Both the position numbers and the translations under genes were made by a program. From a virus (lineage: Duplodnaviria > Heunggongvirae > Uroviricota > Caudoviricetes): DNA of 18,447 nt. Below, one piece after another: positions 1-15,909 of the stretch; position 1 is the stretch's first letter, and the number at the start of each line of letters is the position of its first letter. The stretch is taken from IMG/VR virus record IMGVR_UViG_2778261463_000012, positions 1-18,447 of that record; one strand, written 5' to 3'. Below the pieces are notes generated by a model, which was not told the origin of the DNA, ran no database searches, and saw only the letters and a list, made by a program, of their open reading frames with translations.

Positions 1-20
1 CCATTTGATCATATGACAAG

Positions 21-587: not shown

Positions 588-596
588 ATATTACAT

Positions 597-1060: not shown

Positions 1061-1884
1061 AAAAAATTATTTTTTCTTTAGCCATTGTTCTGCCTGCCAT
1101 TGGCCTTGTCGGTTGTGATCGTGTTGAGCCTGGTAATGTGGGCATCAAAGTCAACAAACTTGGCGACGATAAAGGCGTAGGTGAAGTGGTCGGTGTTGGT
1201 CGCTACTGGACAGGCTGGAACACTGAAGTTTATATCTTCCCGACCTTTAAGCAGATGAAGACCTACGATGATCCATTCAGTTTCCAGATGAGCGATGGAA
1301 CAACCATTGGTTACCACATCGGAGTAGCCTACAAGGTTGATCCATCCAAAGTTACCACGGTGTTTCAAACCTACCGCAAAGGTGTGGATGACATTACCGA
1401 CACCGACCTGCGCCAGAAGATAGCAGATGCACTAAATCGGCTGGCCAGCAAAATGACCACTGATAAATTTATCGACGGTGGTAAATCTGAACTACTGGAT
1501 TCAGCTCTAAAAGATATTCAGGCAGAAATGACGCCCATCGGTATTCAGGTAATGAGCCTGTCTTATGTAGGTAAGCCGGAATACCCGTCAACTGTTATTG
1601 ACAGCATTAACGCTAAAGTCACGGCAAATCAGAAAACTCTTCAACGTGAGCAGGAAGTAAAACAGCGCGAAGCGGAAGCCAACATGTTGCGCGCGGAAGC
1701 TGCCGGACAGGCTGATGCGATTCGCACAAAAGCCCAGGCCGAAGCCGATGCTATTCGTTTACGCGGCGAAGCTCTGCGCCAGAACCCCGGTGTTATGGAG
1801 CTGGAAGCCATCAATAAATGGAACGGCACACTGCCGCAATACATGACCAACGGTGCCAGTACACCATTTATCCAGGTTAAATAA
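1057..1884 (+). CDS. SPFH/band-7 (prohibitin/HflC-like) family lipoprotein
   Basis: N-terminal signal peptide with lipobox (LVGC); central SPFH-like region; Ala/Glu/Arg/Gln-rich coiled-coil C-terminal segment (REQEVKQREAEANMLRAEAAGQADAIRTKAQAEADAIRLRGEAL) typical of band-7 proteins. AAGGA at 1046-1050. Confidence 0.8.
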   Translation: MKKIIFSLAIVLPAIGLVGCDRVEPGNVGIKVNKLGDDKGVGEVVGVGRYWTGWNTEVYIFPTFKQMKTYDDPFSFQMSDGTTIGYHIGVAYKVDPSKVTTVFQTYRKGVDDITDTDLRQKIADALNRLASKMTTDKFIDGGKSELLDSALKDIQAEMTPIGIQVMSLSYVGKPEYPSTVIDSINAKVTANQKTLQREQEVKQREAEANMLRAEAAGQADAIRTKAQAEADAIRLRGEALRQNPGVMELEAINKWNGTLPQYMTNGASTPFIQVK

Positions 1885-1923
1885 CTTATATGCCCGGCAA
1901 GCCGCCGGGCTAAGGGAAAGCAG

Positions 1924-2283
1924 ATGAACACTCATAATACTCAACCGAAAATAATGAACTATGACCCGAATCTGACGTCGTGCGGACGCATGGCAAAACA
2001 AACCGTTCGATTAACTTTCGGACTATGGGAATACCGCGAAACATTCGAAGTCACTGTCGGTGGCAACCTGACCGGACTCGATGTTATCAGTTGCGCTATT
2101 GAAAGCCTGTACGCAACGCTGCCTTATGAAGAAGTCGAGGATGAGCGCGATATCATAGCCACCATTAATATCGGCGGACTGGAATGCAAGGATGAAGACC
2201 TGCAGGGAGAACTCTGGCTTGCCGAGATGCTTGTATCCGCAGAAATAATCAGCATTGAGCCTGACACAGGCATACAACTCTGA
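1924..2283 (+). CDS. hypothetical acidic protein (119 aa)
   Basis: ORF co-directional with the cluster; no recognisable motif. Confidence 0.4.
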   Translation: MNTHNTQPKIMNYDPNLTSCGRMAKQTVRLTFGLWEYRETFEVTVGGNLTGLDVISCAIESLYATLPYEEVEDERDIIATINIGGLECKDEDLQGELWLAEMLVSAEIISIEPDTGIQL

Positions 2284-2313
2284 AATTCCATAAATTCAGG
2301 GAGCAATAGAAAA

Positions 2314-2556
2314 ATGTTCGCTTTGATTAATCAGGGGCAGCTATACACCGACAGTTCCGGTTACCCAATAAAAATTATTCGCTGCATAAACAGCACTGTG
2401 TTGTACAGAAGAATGGATGGGTTAACACAGTCGGTAAAAATAAACGATTTTAATGAACTGTTTGAACGGATCGATCACCAGGAATACCGACAAATTCTGG
2501 CAGAAACAGAGCAGGAAGCTCATCTGAAAAAATTACGAGCCATGAAAAGGAAGTAA
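2314..2556 (+). CDS. hypothetical protein (80 aa)
   Basis: ORF co-directional with the cluster; no recognisable motif. Confidence 0.35.
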   Translation: MFALINQGQLYTDSSGYPIKIIRCINSTVLYRRMDGLTQSVKINDFNELFERIDHQEYRQILAETEQEAHLKKLRAMKRK

Positions 2557-2712
2557 AGAATGAATAAAGCATTTGAACGATGAGTGCGCCAGCGTTATGG
2601 CAATCGCTATGACCTGACGAGAGATCTCGAAGGCTACTACTGCCGTGAAGTAGTGAAACGAATGTTTGAGGTGTGGTGTCACTGCCGCGGATAAAAGTTT
2701 TGTGAGGTAACT

Positions 2713-2928
2713 ATGTCTCTCAACATTGACTGTGTACCTATTACGACATGGTGTCGTGATATGGGAGAAACTCTGGATGCCGTTAACAAACGGTTACAAC
2801 GTGGAGTATGGGAGGAAGGGGTTCAGGTTTTAAATGTGGAAGGCTCCAAAGAACGATGGATTGATTTAACTGAGGTTTCAAAATGGGCGAGAAAAAACAA
2901 ATATCCTTATCACTCCCAAGAGGAATAA
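2713..2928 (+). CDS. putative excisionase-like small DNA-binding protein (71 aa)
   Basis: Small ORF immediately upstream of, and overlapping by 46 nt, a tyrosine integrase gene (classic xis-int arrangement). GAGGT precedes ATG 2713. Assignment is by context and size only. Confidence 0.4.
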   Translation: MSLNIDCVPITTWCRDMGETLDAVNKRLQRGVWEEGVQVLNVEGSKERWIDLTEVSKWARKNKYPYHSQEE

Positions 2929-4055
2929 CAATTCGTCAATACAAGAATTGCTCTACATTAGTTGTGACCTTCACCTATAAAGGGGTTCTTTGCAGGGAAC
3001 CCTTATCAAGGCTGGAAGTTAACGCAAAGGGGATTAAGTATGCTGAACGACTGCTCGGAGAAATAAAAAACAAAATTAGTGATGGCTCATTCGATTTTTC
3101 AGAGTACTTTCCAAACTCCAAGAAGCTTATATTATTTGGAATGGTAAAGAGGAATAAAAGTGTGAAAGATTACCTAGATGAATATTTAGAAATTTGCAAA
3201 AACAGAAAGTTATCCCCTTCAACAATAAATGGATATGAAAAATGTGTATCTGCATTATCGGAACTACATAACTTACATGTTATTGACCTGACTCCAGCAA
3301 TTTTAAAGAAATGGATTTCAAGAAGAACAACAAAACTGAAGACCATCAGAAACAATTTATCATTTTTAAGAAGCGCAGTAGATGAGGCTGTCACTGACGG
3401 ACTTATAACAATAAACCCTGTAAAACTAGTTAGTGCAAGTAGATACCATGCTGTTAACCATACAACCAATTCTGCCGAATATGAAGTAGACCCCTTTACG
3501 CCAGCAGAAGCAGCCGCTATCTACAACGCCTGTATCTATGAGGAATGGCGAAACCTTTTTTGTTTCGCATTCAATACAGGCCTTCGAAGCTCAGAATTAT
3601 GTGCATTACGTTGGTCTGATATTGATTTTATTGGTCATACCGTTCATGTACAGGTTGCTTCTGTCGTTGGTGTGATAAAAGGAACAAAAACAAAAGCTGG
3701 TACAAGAAAAGTTGAATTAAACAGTGAAGCCCTAATGGCATTACAGTCACAGAAATCATTTACGATGATGAGAAGTGCTTTTGTATTCAGTGACCCAAAG
3801 ACACGCAAACCGTGGGCTAATTCAGCAGCGATTCGTAAGAAAGCCTGGATCCCGACTCTTAAAAAAGCTGGTGTTCGTTACCGTAATCCATATCAGACCA
3901 GACATACATTCGCTACACGACATATCAGCCAGGGGGCAAATTTATTCTGGCTTGCAGGCCAAATGGGGCACAAAGGACCCGAAATGCTTTTTAGACACTA
4001 TGGTTCATATTTATCAGAATATGATGGTAATACAGCAATCTCAGAAGTAATCTAG
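2883..4055 (+). CDS. tyrosine recombinase / integrase (390 aa), AT-rich
   Basis: C-terminal catalytic region with the conserved box II pattern (RHTFATRHISQGANLFWLAGQMGHKGPEMLFRHYGSY; HxxR and terminal Tyr). Transcribed toward the ssrA-like att core at 4189-4214. Confidence 0.85.
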   Translation: MGEKKQISLSLPRGITIRQYKNCSTLVVTFTYKGVLCREPLSRLEVNAKGIKYAERLLGEIKNKISDGSFDFSEYFPNSKKLILFGMVKRNKSVKDYLDEYLEICKNRKLSPSTINGYEKCVSALSELHNLHVIDLTPAILKKWISRRTTKLKTIRNNLSFLRSAVDEAVTDGLITINPVKLVSASRYHAVNHTTNSAEYEVDPFTPAEAAAIYNACIYEEWRNLFCFAFNTGLRSSELCALRWSDIDFIGHTVHVQVASVVGVIKGTKTKAGTRKVELNSEALMALQSQKSFTMMRSAFVFSDPKTRKPWANSAAIRKKAWIPTLKKAGVRYRNPYQTRHTFATRHISQGANLFWLAGQMGHKGPEMLFRHYGSYLSEYDGNTAISEVI

Positions 4056-4188
4056 TCGCTTAAATATTTCAAAATATGTACAAAGGTAGGACACAGAATA
4101 GACCTTAACTTACACCTGAAATACATAAAAATATACAGTGAAATATGAAATCATTTGTATTTCATATTGTTATGTAATTTGGGTGTTT

Positions 4189-4214
4189 GGGTTCAACTCC
4201 CGCCAGCTCCACCA
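4189..4214 (+). other. att core: 26-nt copy of the tmRNA (ssrA) 3' end (GGGTTCAACTCCCGCCAGCTCCACCA); not a full tmRNA gene
   Basis: Exact match to the 3'-terminal 26 nt of E. coli tmRNA as I recall it, ending in CCA. The sequence upstream (4060-4188) is AT-rich and unrelated to tmRNA, so this is an attachment-site duplicate. Confidence 0.7.
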
Positions 4215-4250
4215 CTTGCTCTTCCGGATACGTCCGGAGAAATCCTGAAA

Positions 4251-4283
4251 GCCCGCATGGCACAAGCTCTGCGGGCTTTTTTG
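4251..4283 (+). terminator. rho-independent terminator (ssrA-type) downstream of att core
   Basis: Stem GCCCGCA (4251-4257) / TGCGGGC (4271-4277) followed by TTTTTT (4278-4283). Confidence 0.6.
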
Positions 4284-4326
4284 TGTCTACTGTTGTCCGA
4301 GGATATCCAGCTAAATCCAGTGATTA

Positions 4327-4378
4327 TTGGTATACGTTTAGGTATACGGTAGGATGTATACCTAAACGCGTATACCAA
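4327..4378. promoter_or_regulatory. imperfect inverted repeat of GGTATACG-containing arms immediately upstream of int; candidate Int-binding/operator site
   Basis: Left arm TTGGTATACGTTTAGGTATACG (4327-4348) and right arm GTATACCTAAACGCGTATACCAA (4356-4378) are near-perfect reverse complements. A single copy of the arm recurs at 12578-12599 near the other end of the element. Confidence 0.4.
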
Positions 4379-4398
4379 TTCATGAAGGAGCGGCCAAA

Positions 4399-5598
4399 TT
4401 GGCAAGAACGACACGCCCCCTGACCAACACAGAAGTACTGCGCGCTAAAGCGTTAGAAAAGGATCTAACGTTGCATGATGGCGATGGTCTTTTTCTACTC
4501 GTTAAAACGAACGGTAAGAAGTTATGGCGTTTCCGTTATCAACGTCCGGCAACAAAGCAGCGGACAATGATGGGGCTAGGTACCTTCCCAGCTCTTTCAC
4601 TTGCTGACGCCCGACGGTTAAGAGCGGATTACCTTTCCTTGTTAGCCAACGGAATTGACCCGCAAATTCAAGCTGAAATTGCAGAGGAACAGCAGCAAAT
4701 CGCACAGGACAGTATTTTTACAACGGTCGCCGCTAACTGGTTCCAGCTTAAAAGCAAAAGCGTAACCCCTGATTACGCAAGAGACATTTGGCGCTCATTG
4801 GAGAAAGATGTATTCCCTGCCGTTGGTGAACTCCCAGTTCAGCAAATCAAAGCCCGAACGTTGGTTGAAGCGCTTGAGCCAGTCAAAGCTCGTGGGGCGC
4901 TAGAGACTGTACGTCGGCTAGTGCAACGCATTAACGAGATAATGATCTTTGCCGTAAATACAGGGCTGATCGATGCCAATCCAGCTTCCGGGGTTGGAAT
5001 GGCCTTTGAGAAGCCAAAAAAGCAAAACATGCCAACACTACGACCAGAAGAACTACCAAATCTAATGCGTTCTTTAGCCATGTCTAATTTATCTGTATCG
5101 ACTCGCTGCCTTATCGAATGGCAGCTTCTAACACTTGTACGCCCTTCTGAAGCCTCTGGTACTCAATGGGCAGAGATCGATCTTGAGAATAAACTCTGGA
5201 CGATCCCTGCAGGACGAATGAAAGCCAAGCGAGAACATATTGTTCCTCTGTCGGTTCGAGCATTAGATATTTTAGAGATAATGAAGCCTATTAGTGCACA
5301 TCGTGAATATGTTTTCCCAAGTAGAAATAATCCTAAGCAACCAATGAATAGTCAGACAGCTAATGCTGCATTAAAAAGAATTGGTTATGGAGGAAAGCTT
5401 GTTGCACATGGTTTGCGTTCTATAGCCAGTACAGCTATGAATGAGGAAGGTTTTAATCCCGATGTTATTGAAGCAGCATTAGCGCATAGCGATAAAAATG
5501 AAGTCCGTAAAGCATATAATCGTTCGACTTACCTTTATCAACGAATTGATTTAATGAATTGGTGGGCTAACTTCGTGTTTAAAAAAACACACGAATAG
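4399..5598 (+). CDS. int: P4-type tyrosine integrase (399 aa, TTG start)
   Basis: AAGGAG at 4385-4390 then TTG 4399. N-terminus MARTTRPLTNTEVLRAKA...DGDGLFLLV and C-terminal HGLRSIASTAMNEEGF...ALAHSDKNEVRKAYNRSTY match the P4/CP4-57 integrase architecture. Sits directly downstream of the ssrA 3'-end att core. Confidence 0.9.
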   Translation: MARTTRPLTNTEVLRAKALEKDLTLHDGDGLFLLVKTNGKKLWRFRYQRPATKQRTMMGLGTFPALSLADARRLRADYLSLLANGIDPQIQAEIAEEQQQIAQDSIFTTVAANWFQLKSKSVTPDYARDIWRSLEKDVFPAVGELPVQQIKARTLVEALEPVKARGALETVRRLVQRINEIMIFAVNTGLIDANPASGVGMAFEKPKKQNMPTLRPEELPNLMRSLAMSNLSVSTRCLIEWQLLTLVRPSEASGTQWAEIDLENKLWTIPAGRMKAKREHIVPLSVRALDILEIMKPISAHREYVFPSRNNPKQPMNSQTANAALKRIGYGGKLVAHGLRSIASTAMNEEGFNPDVIEAALAHSDKNEVRKAYNRSTYLYQRIDLMNWWANFVFKKTHE

Positions 5599-5611
5599 CC
5601 CACATAAAATA

Positions 5612-5634
5612 AGAGGCTGCTCAATGCAGCCATT
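5612..5634. terminator. probable bidirectional terminator between convergent int and cargo operon
   Basis: Hairpin GGCTGC (5615-5620) / GCAGCC (5626-5631), flanked by A-rich sequence upstream and T-rich downstream on the + strand. Confidence 0.4.
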
Positions 5635-6379
5635 ATTTCAATGAATTAATATACGTATTTAATCCTGTTGATTTTATAACTCCCATCACTTCTGGTGATT
5701 TTTTCAAATAAACAACATTAGGCCATGACAGATAAGCAATAATAATACATATTAGTCGAACCATTGCAAAATCAGACAGATTAATGAGAGTTTCAATATA
5801 CATATGTTTATCTTGCTCATCGAAACCATTTTCAGTTATAACTTCATTATCAACAAGTTTAACTGCAAGATAAAACCTTCTTGCAAATGAAAACATCTTA
5901 TCATCAGATTTATCATCTAATGATTCAATTATTTTAATCAAAGCATCTTCAGCAATACCTCTTTGAATACTGGTTTTAATCAGTTGCTCAAGTTTATTTA
6001 CAGCATTAACCTTTTTAACTTCAAAATCACCACTTGGAGATGGAAAAATCAAAGAGAAATCATCAAAAGCACTTTTTTGCGCGTTAATTAAATTATAAAA
6101 TTGAAATTCAAATGACTTCCTTTTATCAAGAAACTCCTGTCTTTTAGTCTCATTAATTAAACATTCATTCGCAGTTAATTGCATTTTAACTGATTTAATT
6201 AGAAGTAATATTGAAATGAAACTCAATATAGGATTAAGAACACCTCCAAAATAATCACCAAACTGTCCCCATATCTCTTTGTTTTCAGAAAGAGTGGTTG
6301 AGCTTCCACCAAATTGATAATAGTATAATCCAAAGACTACTAATATCAAAATAGATGTAACCCAACCTATATACCTCAT
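5633..6379 (-). CDS. membrane-anchored protein of unknown function (248 aa); downstream gene of the two-gene cargo operon
   Basis: Two N-terminal hydrophobic helices (IGWVTSILILVVFGLYYY and VLNPILSFISILLLIKSV) flank a Gly/aromatic-rich motif (WGQFGDYFGG); charged, probably helical C-terminal domain. Start overlaps the stop of the upstream gene (ATGA). GAGGTGG RBS. AT-rich. Confidence 0.65.
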   Translation of the reverse strand: MRYIGWVTSILILVVFGLYYYQFGGSSTTLSENKEIWGQFGDYFGGVLNPILSFISILLLIKSVKMQLTANECLINETKRQEFLDKRKSFEFQFYNLINAQKSAFDDFSLIFPSPSGDFEVKKVNAVNKLEQLIKTSIQRGIAEDALIKIIESLDDKSDDKMFSFARRFYLAVKLVDNEVITENGFDEQDKHMYIETLINLSDFAMVRLICIIIAYLSWPNVVYLKKSPEVMGVIKSTGLNTYINSLK

Positions 6380-7197
6380 ACCCCATCCACCTCAATAATT
6401 AAGTATTTCACTACCTCACCATTACTGATGGTTAAATCTCTAACTTTTAATAACAAATACTCTCGCTCTTCTTCTGCCAGTCTATTGTTAGCATCTAGAT
6501 TACTCGTTATTTTCTTGGTCTGGGCATCAGTAACGTATTTTAGACCATTCAAAAAACCAAAAGAAGTCGTTTTTTCTTCCCCCCTGACTAACAGTCTACC
6601 ATTTCCAGTAAAAGTATTAAACCTAGTAACTATAGCTTCTATCTGATGATCATGATTAGTTTCAATTAGCTCAGTTATATTCAAAGCGGTATTTTTGTTT
6701 AAAGTAATTATCTTTTGCTTCTCACCCGGCTTTCTATAATTCAAATCAACTGAATAGTTGCACATGGTGGAAATTTTATGCATATTTTTAAGTCTATTTC
6801 GAATAGCTTTAGTCAACTCATCTTCAATATCGTCTAATCCGGAAACCACTTTTTTTGCAGCGTCACTCAATGCCGGACCTTCTAAAAAAAGAGACTCATA
6901 AATATAATAACTCATAACTTCTGCAAATACAGTGCGAGTCATACTTGAAAGACGCGCTGCAACTTTTCTATCTGATATAACAACATCAAATCGCTGACCA
7001 AAAGAGCCTGTAAAAGAATGCTTAAGGTTTGTTCTTATTTCATTAGATTGATGTCTGTTTTCTTTAACTTTACCTCGAAGTATTGCCTCTGTAATAATAC
7101 TGGTAACTCCAGATGCACCCAATAGTGTCTGGAGAGCATAATCCATATCTATTTCATCGTCGCCGCTATTGATAACCAAATCAAGACTAACTTTCAT
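6376..7197 (-). CDS. protein of unknown function (about 273 aa); upstream gene of the two-gene cargo operon
   Basis: ORF track gives 6376-7245, but GGGGAAA precedes the ATG at 7197 (MKVSLDLV...), which I prefer as the start. Soluble; no Walker or other catalytic motif I can assign. AT-rich, unlike the P4 backbone. Confidence 0.6.
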   Translation of the reverse strand: MKVSLDLVINSGDDEIDMDYALQTLLGASGVTSIITEAILRGKVKENRHQSNEIRTNLKHSFTGSFGQRFDVVISDRKVAARLSSMTRTVFAEVMSYYIYESLFLEGPALSDAAKKVVSGLDDIEDELTKAIRNRLKNMHKISTMCNYSVDLNYRKPGEKQKIITLNKNTALNITELIETNHDHQIEAIVTRFNTFTGNGRLLVRGEEKTTSFGFLNGLKYVTDAQTKKITSNLDANNRLAEEEREYLLLKVRDLTISNGEVVKYLIIEVDGV

Positions 7198-7333
7198 TAT
7201 TTCCCCACGAATTGATAAAAATCTGCTCAATGAATAAAAGTCCATATTTTTATACAGTAATCAAACTTCCAATGTCTAAAATATGCAAACACATTAAACT
7301 AAATTTATGATAGTGATCAACATATTGCGCGCA

Positions 7334-7352
7334 GTGCTTTCCCCGCCTCGCC
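7334..7352 (-). other. P2/P4-type cos site (19-nt cohesive-end sequence)
   Basis: + strand reads GTGCTTTCCCCGCCTCGCC, the reverse complement of the P2/P4 cohesive end GGCGAGGCGGGGAAAGCAC as I recall it. Located just beyond the 3' end of psu, as in P4. Confidence 0.65.
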
Positions 7353-7455
7353 CGCCCGCTTTGTGGGGCGGTTTTAATGCAGTTGTACTGACACGCTCAG
7401 ACTGCGCCGGGAATGGCGCGGTCTGCAGAAAATGAGGCAGGGAAACGCATGCAAA

Positions 7456-7486
7456 GCCATGCACCTTATCGATGCATGGCTTTTTT
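7456..7486 (+). terminator. rho-independent terminator-like hairpin between cos and psu
   Basis: Stem GCCATGCA (7456-7463) / TGCATGGC (7473-7480), loop of 9 nt, then TTTTTT (7481-7486). The reverse strand has only a short T-run. Confidence 0.45.
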
Positions 7487-7516
7487 CAGTAAAAACGGGC
7501 GGATTTTCGGGGAATT

Positions 7517-8089
7517 TTACACAGACTGACGTGATGCCAGTTGCGCACTTTTACGCGAAAAAATCATGTTCTGCGCAGGGGTGAATTTTTCACGGCTGTC
7601 ATCCACCGAAGCCGCGTCAGGCCTGAATCCGATGGTCGTTAAAATGTCGCTATCCTGTGCGGAATAATTAATTTTTTCCCCCTTCGCAAGCCAGGACAGA
7701 AGGGCTTCACGCAGGGCATCTGTGGCACGCTGTATGGCACAGTTTCGGGCAATGGCCGTCAGCTCACTGTAGCCCATCAGCTCCGGTGCCAGTGCGGCCG
7801 CCAGTGCTGTGCCGTGCTGCTGCATAAAATCATTCAGCCGGTCGCGGATGCTGATGTGCTGAACGGCTTCATGCGAACGAATATAACGACCGGCAGCCTG
7901 ATTCACCTGCCATTTTCTGACTTCGATAATATTGCGTAATTCGTCCAGGCGACTGACGTTTCTGCCTTCCCCGGACAGAAGCCGCAGATATTCCTGTTCG
8001 GCCGCAGCCAGCTCATTTTTGCGTTGCAGCCATGCTGCTTTGTTATTCTGACAGGTGTCAAAGGCCTGCTGTAAGGCTGTGCTTTCCAT
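7517..8089 (-). CDS. psu: Psu, polarity suppression / capsid decoration protein (190 aa)
   Basis: 190-aa protein (MESTALQQAFDTCQNNKAAWLQRKNELAAAEQEY...) of P4 Psu length and sequence character, in the conserved position after delta in the sid-delta-psu block and adjacent to cos. Confidence 0.85.
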   Translation of the reverse strand: MESTALQQAFDTCQNNKAAWLQRKNELAAAEQEYLRLLSGEGRNVSRLDELRNIIEVRKWQVNQAAGRYIRSHEAVQHISIRDRLNDFMQQHGTALAAALAPELMGYSELTAIARNCAIQRATDALREALLSWLAKGEKINYSAQDSDILTTIGFRPDAASVDDSREKFTPAQNMIFSRKSAQLASRQSV

Positions 8090-8162
8090 CGTTATCTCTT
8101 TCTCATCATGCTGAAGAATAAAAATACGGTGTGCGGCGACGGCCGGTGTTAACCGGCAGCCC

Positions 8163-8663
8163 TCATTCCAGACGCAGCGAATATGATTGTGTTTTTAAGC
8201 GTACTGGCGGCAGTTCCTGTTTTTCATGCAGGCTTTCTGCCAGTTCGTCCGGCGTGACCGGGCGGACAATAAAACGGTTGATGGTCTGAAGCGTTTTAAA
8301 CACCAGACCACATCCCGGATCCGTGCACACATAAAAACGCTCGGTGACTTCCTGAGACAGACGCCGCGATGTTCTTGACAGTGCAAGGCCTTTACATCTC
8401 CGACAACAATATCCGGTAACAAGCATTCTTTTCGGGCGTTTCATACTGCCGGAGGCTGACGTCAGTGAATCGCGGTATCTCTGTTTGCCTGAAATGTATT
8501 CCATTCCTGAATCTTTACTGTCAGAGAAAAAGCTTTCACTCGCTTCAAATGTCGCAGAGCAATAAATATTCCGGCACTGTGCAATCATTATCTTGGTGCC
8601 ATCGTCCATGAAATGTGCGCGGCGGGTGTGAGCAACATGTCCACACGACGGGCAGTAAATCAT
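8163..8663 (-). CDS. delta: Delta, Ogr/Delta-family zinc-finger late transcriptional activator (166 aa from MIYCPSCGH)
   Basis: Ogr-like zinc-finger motifs (CPSCGH...QCRNIYCSATF, and a second CCRRC...CTDPGCG half), consistent with the duplicated-Ogr architecture of P4 Delta. The ORF track starts at 8720; I prefer the internal ATG at 8661-8663, giving 166 aa. Confidence 0.8.
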   Translation of the reverse strand: MIYCPSCGHVAHTRRAHFMDDGTKIMIAQCRNIYCSATFEASESFFSDSKDSGMEYISGKQRYRDSLTSASGSMKRPKRMLVTGYCCRRCKGLALSRTSRRLSQEVTERFYVCTDPGCGLVFKTLQTINRFIVRPVTPDELAESLHEKQELPPVRLKTQSYSLRLE

Positions 8664-8956
8664 GACAGCAGTCCTCTGGCCTTCAGCTCTGCTCCCTGCT
8701 GGTCTATTTTGTCCTGCCACACCTTGCGCTGTGCCGGTGTGCCTGCCACCTCATAATCCATGTGCGGGAGTGTTGCCGCTGACAGTCCGGCCAGCCGGAG
8801 AACCGGCTCGCCGCTGAGGCTGATTTGTATCTGTTTAATTTTCTGTTCCAGCGATGATTTCACCTGCTGCATGACAGCCTTTTCCGGTGCGACGTAGCCC
8901 TGATGGCCGGTGGTGTTGGCGAGCGGATTTTCCTGTACCAGAATGCTCAGATGCAT
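8660..8956 (-). pseudogene. sid: sid-like ORF, probably 5'-truncated (98 aa from its only ATG; frame open without a start up to a stop at 9116-9118)
   Basis: Occupies the position of sid directly upstream of and overlapping delta. My translation of the upstream frame finds no ATG/GTG/TTG before the stop at 9116-9118, so at most about 152 codons remain, against 244 aa for P4 Sid. Identity rests on position, not motif. Confidence 0.4.
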
Positions 8957-9489
8957 TGCCCGGACAAGCGCCTCACAGGTTTCATTCAGGGCGTGTTCCA
9001 GCTCATGCTCTGCATACAGACTCAGCAGGTGATGATGTGCCTTCCGGTATCCTTGTGCGTATCCTCGCTGACGGGCGCACCACAGACATCCCGCTGGGGC
9101 GTTTTCTGCGGGAATTTACCTGTGACCGTCCTGACCTGTTCAAACGCAGCCCCGTAAACCGGCATGCGGTACTGAAAGAAATGGCCGGAGACCCGGAATT
9201 ACAGAAATGGCGGGAGAAATATCTGGATATTTACCCGCAGGAGCCTGTTCCGGTCAGCCGGGAAGCACCGGTGGCGCGGGAATGGCGGGAAATTCCCCGC
9301 ACGGAGCCTGACCCGGAAATCACACCGGATAACAGTTACCGCAATTATCTGTAATTAAAAAACGACACCCGAAAAATTAAATGTGCGTATTCGCGCAGGG
9401 ATACGCACGTCTTCAGGAGACGCAGATATGCCTTATCAGTTAATGCAACCGGCACGGAATTCAGTCATCTGTCACAGGGAGGAAAGCAA

Positions 9490-9810
9490 ATGAAAACACC
9501 CTTACCGCCCGTCTTACGCGCTGCCCTTTACCGTCGCGCTGTCGCCTGTGCCTGGCTGACCGTGTGCGAACGTCAGCACCGCTACCCGCATCTCACCCTT
9601 GAGTCACTGGAGGCGGCCATCGCCGCTGAGCTGGAAGGCTTTTATCTGCGCCAGCACGGTGAGGAAAAAGGGCGTCAGATAGCCTGTGCCCTGCTGGAAG
9701 ATTTAATGGAATCCGGCCCCCTGAAGGCCGCGCCGTCGCTGTCCTTTCTCGGGCTGGTTGTGATGGATGAACTCTGTGCCCGTCACATAAAAGCGCCGGT
9801 ACTGCACTGA
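9490..9810 (+). CDS. small conserved protein upstream of alpha (106 aa)
   Basis: GGAGG at 9479-9483 precedes ATG 9490. GC-rich codon usage like the P4 backbone; ends 15 nt before the alpha start. In P4 a small ORF occupies the equivalent position; exact identity not verified. Confidence 0.55.
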
Positions 9811-9824
9811 AGGAGAACAACACC

Positions 9825-12158
9825 ATGAAAATGAACGTAACCGCCACCGTCAGCCATGCGCTCGGCCACTGGCCGCGTATTCTCCCGGCGCTGGGGATTC
9901 AGGTGCTGAAGAACCGTCATCAGCCCTGTCCGGTCTGTGGCGGGAGTGACCGCTTCCGTTTTGATGACAGGGAGGGGCGCGGCACCTGGTACTGCAATCA
10001 GTGTGGTGCCGGTGACGGCCTGAAACTGGTTGAAAAGGTGTTTGGTGTCTCCCCGTCCGACGCGGCCGCAAAAGTGGCTGCCGTGACCGGCAGCCTGCCC
10101 CCGGCTGACCCGGCAGTGACGGCTGCCGCCGGTGCTGAAACAGACGCTGCCCGGAAGAACGCAGCCGCACTGGCACAAACCCTGATGGCGAAAACCTGTC
10201 CCGGAACCGGTAACGCCTACCTGACCCGCAAGGGCTTTCCCGGCCGGGAATGCCGGATGCTGACCGGCACACACAGAGCCGGTGGCGTGAGCTGGCGCGC
10301 CGGTGACCTTGTGGTGCCACTGTATGACGACAGCGGCGAACTGGTTAACCTTCAGTTAATCAGTGCTGACGGCCGTAAGCGCACTCTGAAAGGCGGACAG
10401 GTCAGGGGCACCTGTCACACCTTTGAAGGACAGAATCAGGCCGGAAAACGTCTGTGGATAGCGGAGGGATACGCGACCGCACTTACCGTGCATCACCTGA
10501 CCGGTGAAACGGTGATGGTGGCGCTTTCTTCCGTGAACCTCCTTTCTCTGGCCAGCCTTGCCCGGCAGAAGTATCCGGCCTGTCAGATTGTCCTTGCCGC
10601 AGACCGTGACCTCAGCGGTGACGGCCAGACAAAAGCCGCCGCAGCCGCAGATGCGTGTGAGGGCGTTGTTGCCCTGCCGCCGGTCTTCGGTGACTGGAAT
10701 GATGCCTTCACGCAGTACGGCGGGGAGGCCACCCGTAAGGCCATTTACGATGCCATCCGGCCACCGGCTGAAAGCCCGTTCGACACCATGAGCGAAGCGG
10801 AGTTTTCCGCCATGAGTACCAGCGAAAAGGCCATGCGTATCTATGAGCATTACGGCGAGGCGCTCGCGGTCGATGCCAACGGCCAGCTTCTGTCCCGCTA
10901 TGAAAATGGTGTCTGGAAGGTGCTGCCGCCACAGGACTTTGCCCGGGATGTGGCCGGGCTGTTTCAGCGTCTGCGCGCGCCGTTCTCCTCCGGGAAGGTG
11001 GCCTCCGTGGTGGACACCCTGAAGCTGATTATTCCGCAGCAGGAAGCCCCCTCCCGCCGCCTGATTGGCTTTCGTAACGGCGTGCTCGACACGCAGAACG
11101 GCACGTTCCACCCGCACAGTCCGTCACACTGGATGCGCACCCTGTGCGATGTGGATTTCACCCCGCCGGTGGACGGTGAAACGCTGGAGACCCACGCCCC
11201 CGCGTTCTGGCGCTGGCTTGACCGTGCCGCCGGTGGCCGTGCGGAAAAACGCGACGTGATTCTGGCCGCACTGTTTATGGTGCTGGCGAACCGCTACGAC
11301 TGGCAGCTCTTTCTGGAGGTGACCGGTCCCGGCGGCAGCGGCAAAAGTATCATGGCCGAAATAGCCACCCTGCTGGCCGGGGAGGATAACGCCACGTCGG
11401 CCACCATCGAGACGCTGGAATCCCCGCGTGAACGTGCCGCGTTAACTGGCTTCTCACTGATACGCCTGCCGGACCAGGAAAAATGGAGCGGCGACGGTGC
11501 CGGACTCAAGGCCATCACCGGCGGCGATGCGGTGTCCGTGGACCCGAAATACCGGGATGCGTACTCCACGCATATCCCGGCGGTGATTCTGGCCGTGAAC
11601 AATAACCCGATGCGCTTCACCGACCGCAGCGGCGGCGTGTCACGCCGGCGGGTGATTATTCACTTCCCGGAACAGATAGCCCCGCAGGAGCGCGACCCGC
11701 AGCTTAAGGACAAAATCACCCGCGAGCTGGCGGTCATCGTGCGTCACCTGATGCAGAAGTTCAGCGACCCGATGCTCGCCCGGTCACTGCTTCAGTCCCA
11801 GCAGAACTCAGACGAGGCACTGAACATCAAACGGGATGCCGACCCGACGTTTGATTTTATCGGCTATCTGGAAACCCTGCCGCAGACCAGCGGCATGTAT
11901 ATGGGGAACGCCAGTATCATCCCGCGCAATTACCGTAAATACCTCTATCACGCCTATCTGGCCTACATGGAGGCAAACGGCTACCGGAATGTACTCAGCC
12001 TGAAAATGTTCGGGCTGGGGCTGCCGGTGATGCTGAAGGAATACGGACTGAATTACGAGAAGCGCCATACCAAACAGGGGATACAGACCAACCTGACGCT
12101 GAAAGAGGAAAGCTACGGCGACTGGCTGCCAAAATGTGACGACCCTGCAACAACCTGA
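9825..12158 (+). CDS. alpha: P4 alpha-type primase-helicase (777 aa)
   Basis: N-terminal zinc-binding motif (CPVCGGSDRFRF...WYCNQCGAGDG), a TOPRIM-like primase region (LWIAEGYATALT...VLAADRDLSGDGQ) and a Walker A box (TGPGGSGKS) of a C-terminal helicase domain. Length equals that of P4 alpha; followed by terminator and crr repeats. Confidence 0.9.
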   Translation: MKMNVTATVSHALGHWPRILPALGIQVLKNRHQPCPVCGGSDRFRFDDREGRGTWYCNQCGAGDGLKLVEKVFGVSPSDAAAKVAAVTGSLPPADPAVTAAAGAETDAARKNAAALAQTLMAKTCPGTGNAYLTRKGFPGRECRMLTGTHRAGGVSWRAGDLVVPLYDDSGELVNLQLISADGRKRTLKGGQVRGTCHTFEGQNQAGKRLWIAEGYATALTVHHLTGETVMVALSSVNLLSLASLARQKYPACQIVLAADRDLSGDGQTKAAAAADACEGVVALPPVFGDWNDAFTQYGGEATRKAIYDAIRPPAESPFDTMSEAEFSAMSTSEKAMRIYEHYGEALAVDANGQLLSRYENGVWKVLPPQDFARDVAGLFQRLRAPFSSGKVASVVDTLKLIIPQQEAPSRRLIGFRNGVLDTQNGTFHPHSPSHWMRTLCDVDFTPPVDGETLETHAPAFWRWLDRAAGGRAEKRDVILAALFMVLANRYDWQLFLEVTGPGGSGKSIMAEIATLLAGEDNATSATIETLESPRERAALTGFSLIRLPDQEKWSGDGAGLKAITGGDAVSVDPKYRDAYSTHIPAVILAVNNNPMRFTDRSGGVSRRRVIIHFPEQIAPQERDPQLKDKITRELAVIVRHLMQKFSDPMLARSLLQSQQNSDEALNIKRDADPTFDFIGYLETLPQTSGMYMGNASIIPRNYRKYLYHAYLAYMEANGYRNVLSLKMFGLGLPVMLKEYGLNYEKRHTKQGIQTNLTLKEESYGDWLPKCDDPATT

Positions 12159-12174
12159 CCATCATGACTCATCT

Positions 12175-12199
12175 GACCGGCATCTGCCGGTCTTTTTTT
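12175..12199 (+). terminator. rho-independent terminator of alpha
   Basis: Stem GACCGG (12175-12180) / CCGGTC (12187-12192) followed by TTTTTTT (12193-12199). Confidence 0.6.
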
Positions 12200-12216
12200 A
12201 TCCCTGAATTCCCCGA

Positions 12217-12515
12217 AGGTGAACAATCCACTGTTCACCCTTCACCGTATATTCACCCGTTATCACACTGAAATTAAAAGAGAAAAACGAAAGGTGAACA
12301 GTGTGAACAATCAAATCAAAAAAAACTTTTTTTCTCCCTGTGTGATTTCAGTACGGGGGATTAATCACCGGTATGAGTCACACCGGCAGAATGCCGGAGG
12401 TGAAGAATCGAATGTTCACCCTTCACCCATTATTCACCACCTATCACTCTGAAATAAAAGGAGAAAATCAAAGAGTGAACAGTGTGAACAGTTCTTTCGA
12501 AAAAAAATTTTTTTC
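12217..12515. repeat. crr-like region: two direct repeats of about 120 bp about 60 bp apart, carrying TGTTCACC/GGTGAACA iterons
   Basis: Unit 1 about 12217-12335 and unit 2 about 12398-12515 align almost base for base (e.g. ATGTTCACCCTTCACC... and ...GTGAACAGTGTGAACA... followed by A-run/T-run). This matches the P4 crr organisation and the alpha-binding octamer TGTTCACC. Confidence 0.7.
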
Positions 12516-12577
12516 CTGTACGATATAGCATCAATCCAAGTAAAAATGCGCTTTCATTTCACATTAACTTACAGCCA

Positions 12578-12599
12578 TTGGTATACGATTAGGTATACG
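12578..12599. promoter_or_regulatory. single copy of the GGTATACG-containing arm repeat (candidate Int arm-type site) near the right end of the P4-like element
   Basis: TTGGTATACGATTAGGTATACG differs by one base from the left arm at 4327-4348. Confidence 0.35.
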
Positions 12600-12652
12600 C
12601 ACAAAAACTGAATTAAACAAAATCGTTAAAAATCAAAGCGATACAATATTTA

Positions 12653-12674
12653 TTCAAACTCCGCCAGCCCACCA
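12653..12674 (+). other. degenerate second copy of the tmRNA 3'-end att core (TTCAAACTCCGCCAGCCCACCA)
   Basis: Related to 4192-4214 with a few substitutions/indels, ending in CCA, followed by the same type of terminator and by a second P4-type integrase gene. Confidence 0.55.
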
Positions 12675-12710
12675 ATTTTTGATATATTGAAGTTCAGTGA
12701 AGTCTATCAA

Positions 12711-12742
12711 GCCCGCATGGAACCAGCCTTGCGGGCTTTTTT
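12711..12742 (+). terminator. rho-independent terminator (ssrA-type) after second att core
   Basis: Stem GCCCGCA (12711-12717) / TGCGGGC (12730-12736) followed by TTTTTT (12737-12742); near-identical to the stem at 4251-4277. Confidence 0.55.
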
Positions 12743-12840
12743 ACGTCTATAGTAGTCTACCGAGAATTGCTAGAATCTACTCGTTATGGCACCCTTTTTG
12801 GGACCCAACACAAAGGGTCCAAAACATGAGGGTCCCAAAC

Positions 12841-14070
12841 ATGGCAAAAATCGCTAAGAAGCTCACTGACACTGAAATCAAAAGCACCAAACCTGCCGAG
12901 AAAGAGGTTAACCTTTTTGACGGCGATGGTTTGCTCCTGCGAATCGCCCCCTTAGCGAAGGGAGGAAAGAAAAATTGGTATTTCAGATATGCAGTGCCTG
13001 TGACCAAAAAGCGAACTAAGGTGAGCTTAGGAACCTATCCTCACCTTACACTTGCGAAGGCACGAGCTTTACGTGATGAGTACTTGTCGTTGCTTGCAAA
13101 TGGTATAGACCCACAAGTTCATAACACCCACAAAGCCAATGCCCTTAAGGATGCAACGGAACATACATTTCAAGCAGTAGCCAAGAAGTGGCTTGATGAG
13201 AAAGTCAAAACGTCAGGCATCTCCCAGGATCATGCTAACGACATCTGGCGAAGCCTAGAGAGAAATATCTTTCCAACGTTGGGTGATACCCCCATTAAGG
13301 AGATTCGCCCTAAAATGCTTAAACAGCATTTAGACCCCATAGAAAAACGAGGTGTCCTTGAAACACTTCGCCGCGTCATATCCCGCCTGAATGAAATTTT
13401 CCGCTATGCAGCAACAGAAGAACTCATAGAATTCAATCCGGCTGACAACCTGGGGCAACGGTTCAGCAAGCCAAAAAAACAGAATATGCCAGCATTACCC
13501 CCTTCCGAACTCCCCCGCTTCCTGGTTGCTCTAAACAATGCTTCTATCCGTTTAGAAACAAGGCTACTGATTGAGTGGCAACTTCTCACATGGGTTCGCC
13601 CTGGTGAAGCTGTTCGCACAAGATGGTCAGATATTGATATAGAAACCAGCATGTGGAACATCCCGGCGGAGTTTATGAAAATGAAGAAGCCTCACAAAGT
13701 TCCACTGAGCAAAGAATCTTTGCGAGTCTTGGATTCAATGAAAGCCATCAGCGGGCATAGAGAGTGGGTTTTTCCCAGTATCAAAGCTCCACTCAATCAC
13801 ATGCATGAACAAACAGCTAATGCGGCTATAATCCGTATGGGCTTCGGAGGTGAGCTTGTAGCTCATGGTATGCGATCAATCGCTAGAACGGCGGCTGAGG
13901 AGTGTGGCAAGTTTAGAACTGATGTCTTAGAAGCCGCCCTTGCCCACTCGAAAAAAGATGAAATAATTGCAGCCTACAATCGTGCAGAGTATCTCACAGA
14001 ACGTGTGGTTCTCATGCAATGGTGGAGTGACTATGTTTCGTCTCAAAAATACAAAGTTATTGCCGCATAA
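12841..14070 (+). CDS. int: P4-type tyrosine integrase, second copy (409 aa from MAKIAKKL)
   Basis: The ORF is open from 12697, but the N-terminus MAKIAKKLTDTEIKSTKPAEKEVNLFDGDGLLLRI aligns with the start of the integrase at 4399, and GAGGG precedes ATG 12841. C-terminal catalytic region HGMRSIARTAAEE...ALAHSKKDEIIAAYNRAEY. Paralog of the 4399-5598 integrase, clearly diverged. Confidence 0.85.
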   Translation: MAKIAKKLTDTEIKSTKPAEKEVNLFDGDGLLLRIAPLAKGGKKNWYFRYAVPVTKKRTKVSLGTYPHLTLAKARALRDEYLSLLANGIDPQVHNTHKANALKDATEHTFQAVAKKWLDEKVKTSGISQDHANDIWRSLERNIFPTLGDTPIKEIRPKMLKQHLDPIEKRGVLETLRRVISRLNEIFRYAATEELIEFNPADNLGQRFSKPKKQNMPALPPSELPRFLVALNNASIRLETRLLIEWQLLTWVRPGEAVRTRWSDIDIETSMWNIPAEFMKMKKPHKVPLSKESLRVLDSMKAISGHREWVFPSIKAPLNHMHEQTANAAIIRMGFGGELVAHGMRSIARTAAEECGKFRTDVLEAALAHSKKDEIIAAYNRAEYLTERVVLMQWWSDYVSSQKYKVIAA

Positions 14071-14352
14071 CTCTTCCATGATGGGTTAACTATCTTGATT
14101 TATTTGAAGAATTAATGATCACACCATTAACCTATGTGGACTAAGCATAGCCATTTACAAATGGGTACCTTGAGGCCACATAACGAAAGCTGTCGGTCAT
14201 ATCAGCTAAATAATTCACATCTCTTCTCGATTATCATACACCTCGAAGAACTACCAAATTCGCTCTAATCAATGATAAAACAGTTGAATTCGGTTAAAAT
14301 TTGATCAATTTTATCCTCTACATTGTATTGAATCATCCATGAGGTTTTGTGC

Positions 14353-15909
14353 ATGGCTAGCGGAAATGAAAAAAATCATAGAGTTAGGGTCGCACAGTAC
14401 TTGAGGATGTCTACCGACCATCAGCAATATTCTTTACATAATCAGTCTGAATATATCAAAGATTATGCTGAAAAGAACAATATGGAAATCGCTTATACCT
14501 ACGATGATGCAGGTAAGAGCGGAGTCAGTATCGTAGGCAGGCATTCTTTGCAGCAGTTACTTAGCGATGTAGAACAAAAGAAAATAGATATACAGGCTGT
14601 ATTATTTTATGATGTGAGCCGTTTTGGTCGTTTTCAAAATAGTGATGAAGCTGCATATTATTCCTTTCTATTTGAAAGAAATGGTGTAGATCTTATATAT
14701 TGTTCCGAACCTATACCCACTAAAGATTTCCCTTTAGAGTCCTCTGTTATACTGAATATAAAAAGATCAAGTGCTGCATATCACAGCAGGAATCTATCTG
14801 AAAAGGTATTTATAGGGCAAGTAAATTTAATAAAGCTTGGTTATCATCAAGGCGGTATGGCTGGTTATGGGCTGAGACGTCTTTTAGTAGACGAAAATGG
14901 CATAGCTAAAGAAATATTGAATTTCCGCAAAAGAAAGAGTATTCAAACAGATAGGGTAATATTAATTCCGGGACCAAAAAATGAAATAAAAATTGTAAAT
15001 AGAATCTATGATCTCTTTATAGATAGTAACGTCCCAGAATTCATTATTGCTGAGAGATTAAATGAACAGAGCATACCTGCAGAAAATGGAACATCATGGA
15101 CTCGTGCAAAAATACATCAAATTTTGACAAATGAAAAATATATTGGAAACAACATATATAACAAAACCTCATCTAAACTAAAAAGTAAGCTTGTAAAAAA
15201 CCCCAAACATGAATGGATTAGATGTGACAAGGCATATAAACCAATTATTTCAAAGAAAAAATATAATAAAGCTCAAGAAATAATTCAGCTCCGATCCATT
15301 CATTTGACTAATGAAGATCTATTAGAAAAGCTAAAAGAAAAATTAGAATCTAATGGAAAACTATCAGGCTTTATCATTGATGAAGATGATACAGGCCCTT
15401 CATCTTCTGTTTATAGAACCCGATTTGGTGGTCTTTTAAGAGCATATACTTTGATTGGTTATAAGCCAGAACATGATTACAGCTATCTCCAAATAAATGA
15501 AGCACTAAGATCATTTTACTCAGAGATAATTGAGGATTTTAAGGGCGAAATATTAAAAAGTAACTGTCATATAGACGAGTATAAATATTACCCAATGCTT
15601 TACATCAATGATGAGTTTTTAATTTCCGTCCTTGTTACTAAATGCATACATATGAAATCAGGTAAACTTAGATGGAAAGTCCGGTTTGATAACTCACAGA
15701 AAGCAGACATAACAATTGTTATACGAATGAATTCACAAAATATTTCACCTCTTGATTTTTATATCATACCAAAGATTGAAAACGAATATAGTAAAATGTG
15801 TATGATGGAAACAAACAACATTCGGTTAGATCTCTATAGATTTGATAATCTTGATAAATTTCTACAAATTATTACTCGCATGAAAGTGAGGGAACTATAT
15901 GCTGCCTGA
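14353..15909 (+). CDS. large serine recombinase (about 518 aa)
   Basis: N-terminal resolvase-type catalytic domain (VAQYLRMSTDHQ with the presumptive catalytic Ser; YDDAGKSG; DVSRFGR) and a recombinase domain (GYGLRR...SWTRAKIHQILTNEKYIGN), then a long C-terminal extension. GAGG at 14341-14344 precedes ATG 14353 (ORF track starts at TTG 14347). Very AT-rich. Confidence 0.8.
   Translation: MASGNEKNHRVRVAQYLRMSTDHQQYSLHNQSEYIKDYAEKNNMEIAYTYDDAGKSGVSIVGRHSLQQLLSDVEQKKIDIQAVLFYDVSRFGRFQNSDEAAYYSFLFERNGVDLIYCSEPIPTKDFPLESSVILNIKRSSAAYHSRNLSEKVFIGQVNLIKLGYHQGGMAGYGLRRLLVDENGIAKEILNFRKRKSIQTDRVILIPGPKNEIKIVNRIYDLFIDSNVPEFIIAERLNEQSIPAENGTSWTRAKIHQILTNEKYIGNNIYNKTSSKLKSKLVKNPKHEWIRCDKAYKPIISKKKYNKAQEIIQLRSIHLTNEDLLEKLKEKLESNGKLSGFIIDEDDTGPSSSVYRTRFGGLLRAYTLIGYKPEHDYSYLQINEALRSFYSEIIEDFKGEILKSNCHIDEYKYYPMLYINDEFLISVLVTKCIHMKSGKLRWKVRFDNSQKADITIVIRMNSQNISPLDFYIIPKIENEYSKMCMMETNNIRLDLYRFDNLDKFLQIITRMKVRELYAA

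Follow-up and report, generated by a model that had tools for sequence, protein, structure and literature searches.

Between two copies of the 3' end of the tmRNA gene ssrA, the viral DNA analysed here (18,447 nucleotides in all, hereafter the window) carries an element of about 8.5 kb with an int gene, counterparts of the phage P4 genes psu, delta and alpha, and a P4-type cos site, and it raises the question of whether this is a compact satellite still capable of movement or what is left of a larger one. The initial annotation favoured the former and suggested that a P2-like helper might still be able to mobilise it. Base-level comparison with P4 and with near-identical intact elements leads us to a different answer, namely that the interval is very probably a genuine P4-lineage satellite prophage at ssrA that has been crippled by deletion and persists as a recently immobilised remnant.

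A P4-type satellite at the ssrA site

The element is a P4-type satellite inserted at the ssrA (tmRNA) site, where it stands second in a tandem array of three elements, each with an integrase, at the gene's 3' end (Table 1). Its left core matches at 26 of 26 positions the annotated ssrA end of E. coli E3 (positions 4001-4026 of the intact sister locus L002, NZ_CM130010), which is itself the end of an annotated and Rfam-confirmed tmRNA; 5' of 4189 the window diverges from this locus into prophage DNA, and in sisters free of an upstream prophage the left core forms the end of a complete ssrA gene. Because the window contains just the last 26 nt of ssrA, neither ARAGORN nor Rfam at its gathering threshold finds a complete tmRNA or tRNA in it (0 genes each), and a relaxed Rfam search of the window returns a 3'-end tmRNA match that ends at 4214 (10.9 bits, E 0.45). 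The right end has independent support: a third locus, U90, agrees exactly with both the window and E3 as far as ...GCCAGC (~12669) and diverges beyond that point. As in ssrA islands, copies of the ssrA 3' end thus lie at both sides of the element, the right one degenerate. Weak matches to IsrM (RF02763) occur at both junctions; their scores of 35.7 and 28.6 bits fall far under the gathering score of 376, and they were not taken for an sRNA gene.

Table 1. Positions of the element's features in the window; the strand is given where one was assigned.
Feature	Position	Strand	Description
attL core	4189..4214	+	GGGTTCAACTCCCGCCAGCTCCACCA; last 26 nt of ssrA; doubles as right att of the upstream prophage
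Terminator hairpin near ssrA 3' end	4248..4285	+	terminator-like site at 4264-4278
Candidate arm-type Int-binding repeats, left	4326..4378		GGTATACG three times, one inverted; between core and int
Tyrosine integrase	4399..5598	+	399 aa, intact; Pfam Arm-DNA-bind_3, Phage_int_M, Phage_integrase
Bidirectional terminator-like hairpin	5615..5631		on both strands; separates convergent int and cargo genes
Cargo gene 2	5633..6379	-	248 aa; distant putAbiC (PF16872) relative; AF2 model pLDDT 88
Cargo gene 1	6376..7197	-	273 aa (ORF to 7245); OB-fold-like domain
cos region	7325..7407		common to P2 and P4; 7325-7352 = P4 28-1, 7353 onward = P4 11624 downward
psu	7517..8089	-	intact core component, 190 aa; Pfam Psu E 1.3e-88; 189/190 vs P4 Psu
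delta	8163..8663	-	intact core component, 166 aa; Pfam Ogr_Delta; 163/166 vs P4 Delta
sid remnant	8660..9049	-	codons 116-244 only; 126/129 vs P4 Sid 116-244
Deletion junction	9047..9049		GTA microhomology; ~2.18 kb missing; the blastn segments on either side share 3 nt; flanks inspected
orf151 remnant	9049..9354	+	codons 51-151; 97/101 vs P4 ORF151 51-151
orf106 (cnr, DUF5375)	9490..9810	+	intact; Pfam DUF5375 E 2.9e-63; 106/106 vs P4 ORF106
alpha primase-helicase	9825..12158	+	intact core component, 777 aa; 767/776 vs P4 alpha
alpha terminator	12175..12199	+	terminator-like hairpin, then T-run; annotated P4 t-alpha
crr (cis replication region)	12213..12515		repeat D1; matches P4 4291-4590
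Candidate arm-type Int-binding repeats, right arm	12577..12599	+	GGTATACG twice (repeat D7)
attR	12653..12675	+	TTCAAACTCCGCCAGCCCACCAA; degenerate ssrA 3'-end copy with indels (TTCAAACTCCGCCAGC-CCACCAA)

At the left junction, an element-borne hairpin stands in for the ssrA terminator, and the repeat that includes it (D2, 4232-4297) recurs with 74% identity at 12692-12757. The int gene starts 185 nt past the left core and is transcribed away from it, and exact GGTATACG octamers at 4329, 4341 and 4369, the last on the minus strand, bring the count in the window, together with those of the right arm, to five against 0.26 expected; both this att-int geometry and the candidate arm repeats parallel the annotated attP layout of P4. 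The integrase itself, which qualifies as the integrase component in SatelliteFinder terms, is of the ssrA-associated PRK09692 type and not P4's: it matches NCBIfam NF007246 at 594 bits (cutoff 434), occupies the locus position of WP_000124721.1 in E3 and shares 37% identity with P4 Int. It targets ssrA, whereas P4 uses an att site of its own.

Beyond int and cargo the element closely matches P4. A blastn comparison with the P4 genome (X51522 / NC_001609) yields two blocks with 98% identity over 5.2 kb. Collinear in these blocks are cos, psu, delta, the 3' parts of sid and orf151, orf106, alpha with its terminator, and crr, and the proteins Psu, Delta, orf106 and alpha share 98-100% identity with those of P4; P4 7745-9927 is absent, and gop, beta and cII give way to the two-gene cargo. 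The alpha protein, identical to that encoded by many intact P4-like elements, contains the Pfam domains Zn_Ribbon_Prim, Toprim_3, D5_N, DUF5906 and Pox_D5. Downstream of it, crr consists of two direct repeats of ~120 nt (12213-12334 and 12394-12515, with starts 181 nt apart) and holds all four exact TGTTCACC type-1 repeats of the window. At cos, the 19-nt cohesive-end sequence (the reverse complement of GGCGAGGCGGGGAAAGCAC) is exact at 7334-7352, and a stretch of ~80 bp here shares 89-90% identity with cos regions of P2-like phages, so that both the 19-mer and its surroundings place the element with the P2/P4 cos-packaging group.

The initial annotation had thus described the layout well. The genome is of P4 type, its att junctions derive from the tmRNA 3' end, and psu, delta and alpha are related to their P4 counterparts and, like int, are open and bear Pfam domains. 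The order that it gave between the att copies, int, cargo, cos, psu, delta, sid remnant, a small ORF, alpha and crr, is correct, the small ORF being orf106; cos and crr are both in place, and the cargo does replace the gop/beta/cII region.

The 2.18-kb deletion

The description of the element as compact did not survive the same comparison, since its small size results from one deletion of ~2.18 kb relative to near-identical intact elements. The alignments establish the deletion, define its exact content and find all other parts intact. The missing segment corresponds to P4 7745-9927 (equivalently 7748-9930) and to 8862-11043 of L002, and the scar, which the initial annotation overlooked, lies between the sid remnant and orf106. 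Lost with it are the origin of replication (the P4 ori region at 9086-9809, with its type-1 and type-2 repeats), the CI immunity RNA, isrK, AlpA/Vis (orf88, P4 8764-9030) and epsilon/Ash (P4 7888-8175), as well as Sid residues 1-115, ORF151 residues 1-50 and the 5' end of each of the two divergent operons. No AlpA/orf88 counterpart is matched elsewhere in the window, and Rfam detects the C4 (CI) RNA, isrK and tmRNA in L002 and none of the three in the window. The two genes at the scar are fragments: the sid remnant lacks a start codon, a ribosome-binding site and a promoter and aligns to PHROG 6165 over profile positions 146-241 of 242 only, leaving the element without a complete Sid, and the orf151 remnant aligns to PHROG 10748 over positions 51-151 of 151.

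The loss extends to transcription signals. In the X02534 annotation the sid -10, the start of the leftward 5' UTR and two further -10s fall within the gap; with the 5' ends of both operons deleted, neither psu/delta nor alpha keeps its annotated promoter signals. A 'consensus -10' of the same annotation (3627-3632; window ~9350-9355) is kept 5' of orf106/alpha, and some expression of alpha from it is possible. A promoter scan of the element returned 12 sites against 9.5 expected, with none 5' of alpha and none on the correct strand 5' of psu/delta, a result that carries no weight as positive evidence.

Intact relatives are close at hand. The satellite L004 (GCA_000351165.1, KB732530) differs by 5 + 4 = 9 mismatches over 8.49 kb and contains the missing 2.18 kb, and L002 is 99.96% identical to the window over 4189-9049. 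Both are inserted at the same site as the window's element, have its integrase, core genes and cargo pair at 99.9% DNA identity, and differ from it in having sid and orf151 in full, alpA, epsilon and an Icd/ASH region that includes the C4 (CI) RNA and isrK. More broadly, in eight of eight loci with an alpha protein of identical sequence, Sid (244 aa), AlpA, ASH, Derepression and orf151 are all present, and epsilon in the sister loci is recognised as PF25738. The junction is a different matter: no contiguous match to it exists in 5,426 complete E. coli genomes, where the lone match covering 100% of the junction query consists of two separate pieces within 1,240 bp in a different arrangement, an exact junction 34-mer has 0 matches in genome_contigs (GTDB species representatives) and metagenome_contigs, and the junction-spanning ORF was not found in the gene index. 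A recurring compact variant was rejected on this evidence, and the deletion looks like a private, recent event. We propose that the ancestor was a complete P4-like satellite at ssrA, of a kind common in E. coli and arranged as int, two-gene cargo, cos, psu, delta, sid, alpA, cI/isrK, epsilon, orf151, orf106, alpha and crr, from which a single illegitimate recombination at the 3-bp GTA microhomology would have removed the ~2.18 kb.

Cargo between int and psu

The two cargo genes lie between int and psu and adjoin cos, as does the cargo of the psu-int defence hotspot of P4 (Rousset et al. 2022, PMC9122126). Table S1 of that study lists the exact pair (WP_000868779 + WP_001269066) as 'hypothetical + hypothetical', and we found no record of an anti-phage assay for it. 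The pair recurs in P4 hotspots and stays adjacent as far away as Pseudoalteromonas. PADLOC, Pfam and NCBIfam give the cargo no confident assignment and PHROGs give unknown-function families alone, including PHROG 8999 for cargo gene 2; against PADLOC-DB there is no significant match, the hits being weak ones to PDC-S25 (partial, E 1.2e-5) and to ZorB (E 0.009). Cargo gene 2 has no direct Pfam match and does not reach the gathering score of PF16872. At the profile level it aligns with putAbiC by hhalign at 99.8% probability (E 1.6e-28, 161 columns), including the invariant WGQFGDYFGGVLNP motif past the first predicted N-terminal helix; 5 of its 35 distant homologs match PF16872, and homologs bear the name 'phage abortive infection protein'. 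Its two N-terminal helices are predicted to be membrane-spanning. The cargo pair is most likely a putative abortive-infection-type anti-phage module.

Functional state and classification

P4 replicates by means of alpha together with ori and crr in cis, AlpA/Vis drives its excision, epsilon derepresses the P2 prophage and Sid builds the small capsid, with Psid and PLL as the late promoters activated by Delta/Ogr. The element has crr and alpha and has lost ori, and would not constitute a functional P4 replicon. Because the parts needed to replicate autonomously, to excise under regulation, to derepress and so induce a helper and to build small capsids are deleted, established P4 biology predicts that the element can do none of these. 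By this reasoning the element is probably immobile, and the suggestion that a P2-like helper may still mobilise it is undercut by the deletion of ori, AlpA/Vis, epsilon, CI/isrK, promoters and Sid 1-115. The intact frames of psu, delta and alpha say little on function, since ori, regulators and promoters are gone. Int, both att cores with their candidate arm repeats, cos and the cargo are all intact, and to judge from their sequences the integrase, att sites, cos and cargo operon probably still work; rare Int-only excision and cos-dependent packaging would be possible.

Other readings carry far less weight. One, which we consider improbable, is that the remnant is a domesticated defence locus with a new abortive-infection cargo, and/or a hitch-hiking 'satellite of a satellite'. 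Another would make the element a naturally compact, functional P4-like satellite, still mobilisable by a P2-like helper. The open frames of int, psu, delta and alpha, the intact cos and the two att sites with candidate arm repeats fit this view, as does the observation from SatelliteFinder-type surveys that some clade-forming variants without one or two core genes may function. The window belongs to no such clade, its junction being absent from all 5,426 complete E. coli genomes and from the other collections scanned, and 9 substitutions and a single deletion separate it from intact sisters; the cis-acting ori, AlpA, epsilon, CI RNA and promoter region are absent, sid is 5'-truncated, and with 3 of 7 core components missing or broken the damage exceeds that of any accepted type. 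We therefore regard natural compactness as highly improbable.

Fainter still is the prospect of mobility in trans, in which a co-resident intact P4-like element would give AlpA, Sid, Delta and epsilon, a P2 helper would give terminase and capsids, and the remnant would use its own int, att and cos. These three are intact, the 8.5-kb circle is smaller than the 11.6-kb P4 genome, and in those E. coli genomes that the junction-region query matches it does so at a median of 2 places and at most 8; with the cis-acting ori missing, however, at most a single unreplicated copy could arise, AlpA-type regulators and integrases are usually cognate, and a second P4-like element or helper was not found within the window. 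Least probable of all is that the 2.18-kb segment is real and was dropped in assembly, for although the junction is unique to this sequence, its homology is 3 bp only with no repeat able to collapse an assembly, the flanks are collinear with intact elements at 99.9% identity, and such microhomology deletions are ordinary.

P4-like satellites are defined by seven core components, of which Types A-C need at least five (SatelliteFinder, PMC10085698), and the element has four intact, one truncated and two absent; judged by 98-99.9% DNA identity it is a member of the P4-like satellites by descent, and it falls short of what the operational definition asks of a complete one. Defective P4-like elements in which mobility genes are pseudogenised and defence genes conserved have been described (Moura de Sousa et al., NAR 2026, PMC13586616). 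As in these, mobility and replication are probably inactivated here and the hotspot cargo is almost identical to that of intact elements, whereas the window shows one clean deletion in place of scattered pseudogenes, retains an intact alpha and carries cargo that is not a recognised defence system. The element is an ordinary remnant.

The case calls for caution in reading such loci, as open int, psu, delta and alpha frames together with cos mimic a working 'compact' satellite, and software that counts markers could even credit the sid fragment and miscall the element as a P4-like variant. It is base-level comparison with P4 that exposes the loss of the cis-acting origin and of the whole control region. 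The cargo pair, the sole part of the element with forward value, is a reasonable candidate for anti-phage testing, and the element as a whole adds one more case to a documented pattern, that of the defective P4-like element whose hotspot cargo is unchanged.

Identity and boundaries of the element

Three elements, each with its own integrase, lie in tandem in the window at the 3' end of ssrA (see table); the second aligns by blastn with satellite phage P4 (X51522) in two collinear blocks. Its Psu, Delta, ORF106 (cnr, DUF5375) and alpha proteins match those of P4 at 189/190, 163/166, 106/106 and 767/776 positions, so that psu, delta and alpha are clearly P4-related; the initial annotation was right to name a P4-type satellite at ssrA, and its coordinates and gene order hold too. 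Int, of type NF007246/PRK09692 (594 bits; cutoff 434), shares 142/383 residues (37%) with its P4 counterpart, and where P4 has gop, beta and cII two other minus-strand genes are found. The cos cohesive end is intact, and ~80 bp of surrounding sequence share 89-90% identity with the corresponding regions of P2-like phages.

Features of the window
Feature	Position	Details
Prophage right end	1-4185	SPFH, DUF5406, DUF4222, 390-aa integrase (2883-4055)
P4-like remnant	4189-12675	second of three elements
Left att core	4189-4214	GGGTTCAACTCCCGCCAGCTCCACCA
Left terminator hairpin	4232-4297
Cargo gene 2	5633-6379 (-)	248 aa
Cargo gene 1	6376-7197 (-)	273 aa, OB-fold-like
blastn block	7325-7352	P4 28-1, 96.4%
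cos cohesive end	7334-7352	19 nt
blastn block	7353-9049	P4 11624-9928, 98.4%
blastn block	9047-12513	P4 7747-4291, 98.0%
Candidate -10	9350-9355	TGTAAT
crr repeats	12213-12334, 12394-12515	two, ~120 nt each
Right att copy	12653-12675	TTCAAACTCCGCCAGC-CCACCAA; degenerate, with indels
Right terminator hairpin	12692-12757
Third island	12676-18447	409-aa P4-type integrase, large serine recombinase (14347-15909), two ParB/RepB genes (15899-17688)

Both junctions are tmRNA-derived, as had been proposed. The left core matches, base for base, the final 26 nt of ssrA in E. coli E3 (annotated and confirmed by Rfam; locus L002, 3664-4026). Upstream of the core the two sequences are unrelated, and a relaxed Rfam search of the window returned as its sole tmRNA match a 3'-end piece ending at 4214 (10.9 bits, E 0.45); no complete tmRNA or tRNA gene was found in the window by ARAGORN (0 genes) or by Rfam at gathering threshold (0 matches). 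The right copy is where the element truly ends, because window, E3 and E. coli strain U90 are identical to ~12669 and U90, with other DNA 3' of its satellite, diverges just beyond. Related terminator hairpins, 74% identical, lie 3' of each copy, and the window has five copies of the octamer GGTATACG (0.26 expected), three between left core and int and two ~70 bp inside the right core, a layout like that of the annotated attP arm repeats of P4. In the right copy the T of the tmRNA acceptor strand is missing (GCCAGC-CCACCA versus GCCAGCTCCACCA) and the T-arm part has an additional A; in this state the copy could not rebuild a working 3' end of ssrA. Matches to Rfam IsrM (RF02763) at both junctions (4158-4282, 28.6 bits, E 5e-5; 12555-12742, 35.7 bits, E 3e-7) are weak against a gathering score of 376 bits and probably reflect att, terminator and int-leader sequence shared by P4-type islands rather than an sRNA gene.

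Regarding the neighbouring elements, U90 has the same upstream arrangement, and the region there also includes Rha-, LexA- and HTH-family regulator genes. The third island, whose integrase likely starts at 12841 and not at the GTG at 12697, recurs in many E. coli genomes, where it lies downstream of intact P4-like elements. Most E. coli matches to it end exactly at 18242, with one (H16) among the matches listed running to 18447, which suggests another variable-region boundary inside the island (18242-18447).

A 2.18-kb deletion in a common element

The two P4 blocks meet at window 9047-9049, sharing a 3-bp GTA, and P4 7745-9927 (2,183 bp) is absent. By the P4 annotation the loss comprises codons 1-50 of orf151 and 1-115 of sid, epsilon, orf88, the cI region, and ori over its full annotated length (9086-9809), including every one of its type-1 and type-2 repeats; the older P4 record X02534 also places within the lost interval the sid-side -10, the leftward 5' UTR start and two further -10 elements. 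The sid and alpha operons are transcribed divergently out of this region, and with the 5' ends of both deleted, geometry alone shows that psu/delta and alpha have lost their native promoters. In the intact sister locus of E3 (L002), the positive control, Rfam found tmRNA, C4 (the P4 CI immunity RNA) and isrK; in the window it found none of the three. All four window copies of the alpha-binding octamer TGTTCACC lie in crr. Just upstream of orf106/alpha, a 'consensus -10' of X02534 (3627-3632; a 1980s record) is kept as TGTAAT. No other annotated promoter-like signal is left to the alpha operon, and this one is a candidate.

At ssrA, E. coli E3 likewise carries this int and cargo, with the full core gene set after them, and matches window 4189-9049 at 99.96% identity. 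Proteins identical to the window's alpha are very widespread (1,816 index blocks), and all eight identical-alpha loci retrieved encode Sid (244 aa), AlpA (88 aa), ASH, Derepression/epsilon (95 aa) and ORF151. Among these, L004 (GCA_000351165.1) shares int, cargo and the ssrA insertion site with the window's element; the two are separated by 5 + 4 substitutions across 8.49 kb and by the 2.18 kb absent from the window. With 601 nt spanning the junction as query, 5,426 complete E. coli genomes gave no contiguous counterpart; the sole full-coverage match consists of two pieces spread over 1,240 bp, another arrangement and not the same junction. The exact junction 34-mer was absent from GTDB species representatives and metagenome contigs, and the ORF that spans the junction did not occur in the gene index. 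By these sequence comparisons, the deletion appears private and recent in an otherwise common element. Four other identical-alpha loci at ssrA (L005-L007 and L009) differ at about 2400-5300: their integrase region shares only 81% DNA identity and their two cargo genes are different ones (219 + 299 aa), which illustrates swapping of cargo and integrase around cos.

Predicted capacities of the remnant

P4 replication needs ori in cis, along with crr and alpha. Reasoning from established P4 biology, the element would be unable to replicate because ori is missing, and small capsids would not be made because Sid is incomplete; loss of AlpA/Vis would abolish regulated excision, loss of epsilon the derepression of a P2 prophage, and loss of the late promoters the production of Delta and Psu upon helper infection. 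AlpA-driven excision of the P4-like CP4-57 at this same locus, ssrA, is a classic observation, reportedly of Kirby et al. in 1994. P4-like satellites are defined by seven components (Int, Psu, Delta, Sid, AlpA, epsilon, alpha), of which Types A-C may lack at most two; only four are intact here. The initial annotation's compact satellite, possibly mobilisable by a P2-like helper, is not supported: the element is a singly deleted and most likely immobile copy of a common one. Int, the two att sites and cos do remain intact, and rare excision, or mobilisation in trans, might occur. As the Sid fragment is still scored by profile search (PHROG 6165, E 9e-38), automated surveys might count the remnant as a 'Type C variant' of P4-like satellites.

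The cargo pair

The cargo proteins correspond to WP_000868779 and WP_001269066, repeatedly listed at the P4 psu-int hotspot as 'hypothetical + hypothetical' (Rousset et al. 2022, Table S1), and received no confident assignment from PADLOC, Pfam or NCBIfam. The predicted structure of the 248-aa protein (pLDDT 88) begins with two helices, which we read as putatively membrane-spanning, and the protein has an invariant W-x3-G-D-x2-G-G-x2-N-P motif. Among its homologs, some bear the name 'phage abortive infection protein', and Pfam putAbiC is present in distant ones; profile-profile comparison of its group with the putAbiC-bearing group gave 99.8% probability (E 1.6e-28). The pair (window 5633-7197) is also present outside P4-like elements (loci L014, 6001-7564, and L012, 6001-7249): in Pseudoalteromonas the two genes are adjacent with overlapping stop and start, as a stand-alone two-gene insert between housekeeping genes, with a partner protein 31% identical (E 5e-35). 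In Denitrovibrio the genes are also adjacent, and the short partner gene (143 aa) abuts a transposase gene. The OB-fold and putAbiC-like pair thus distributed appears to behave as a mobile module. We infer that its most likely function is of abortive-infection type, with a soluble sensor and a membrane effector. Defective P4-like elements retaining conserved hotspot genes have already been described (PMC13586616); taken as a whole the finding is ordinary, and of its parts the candidate cargo pair alone merits follow-up.
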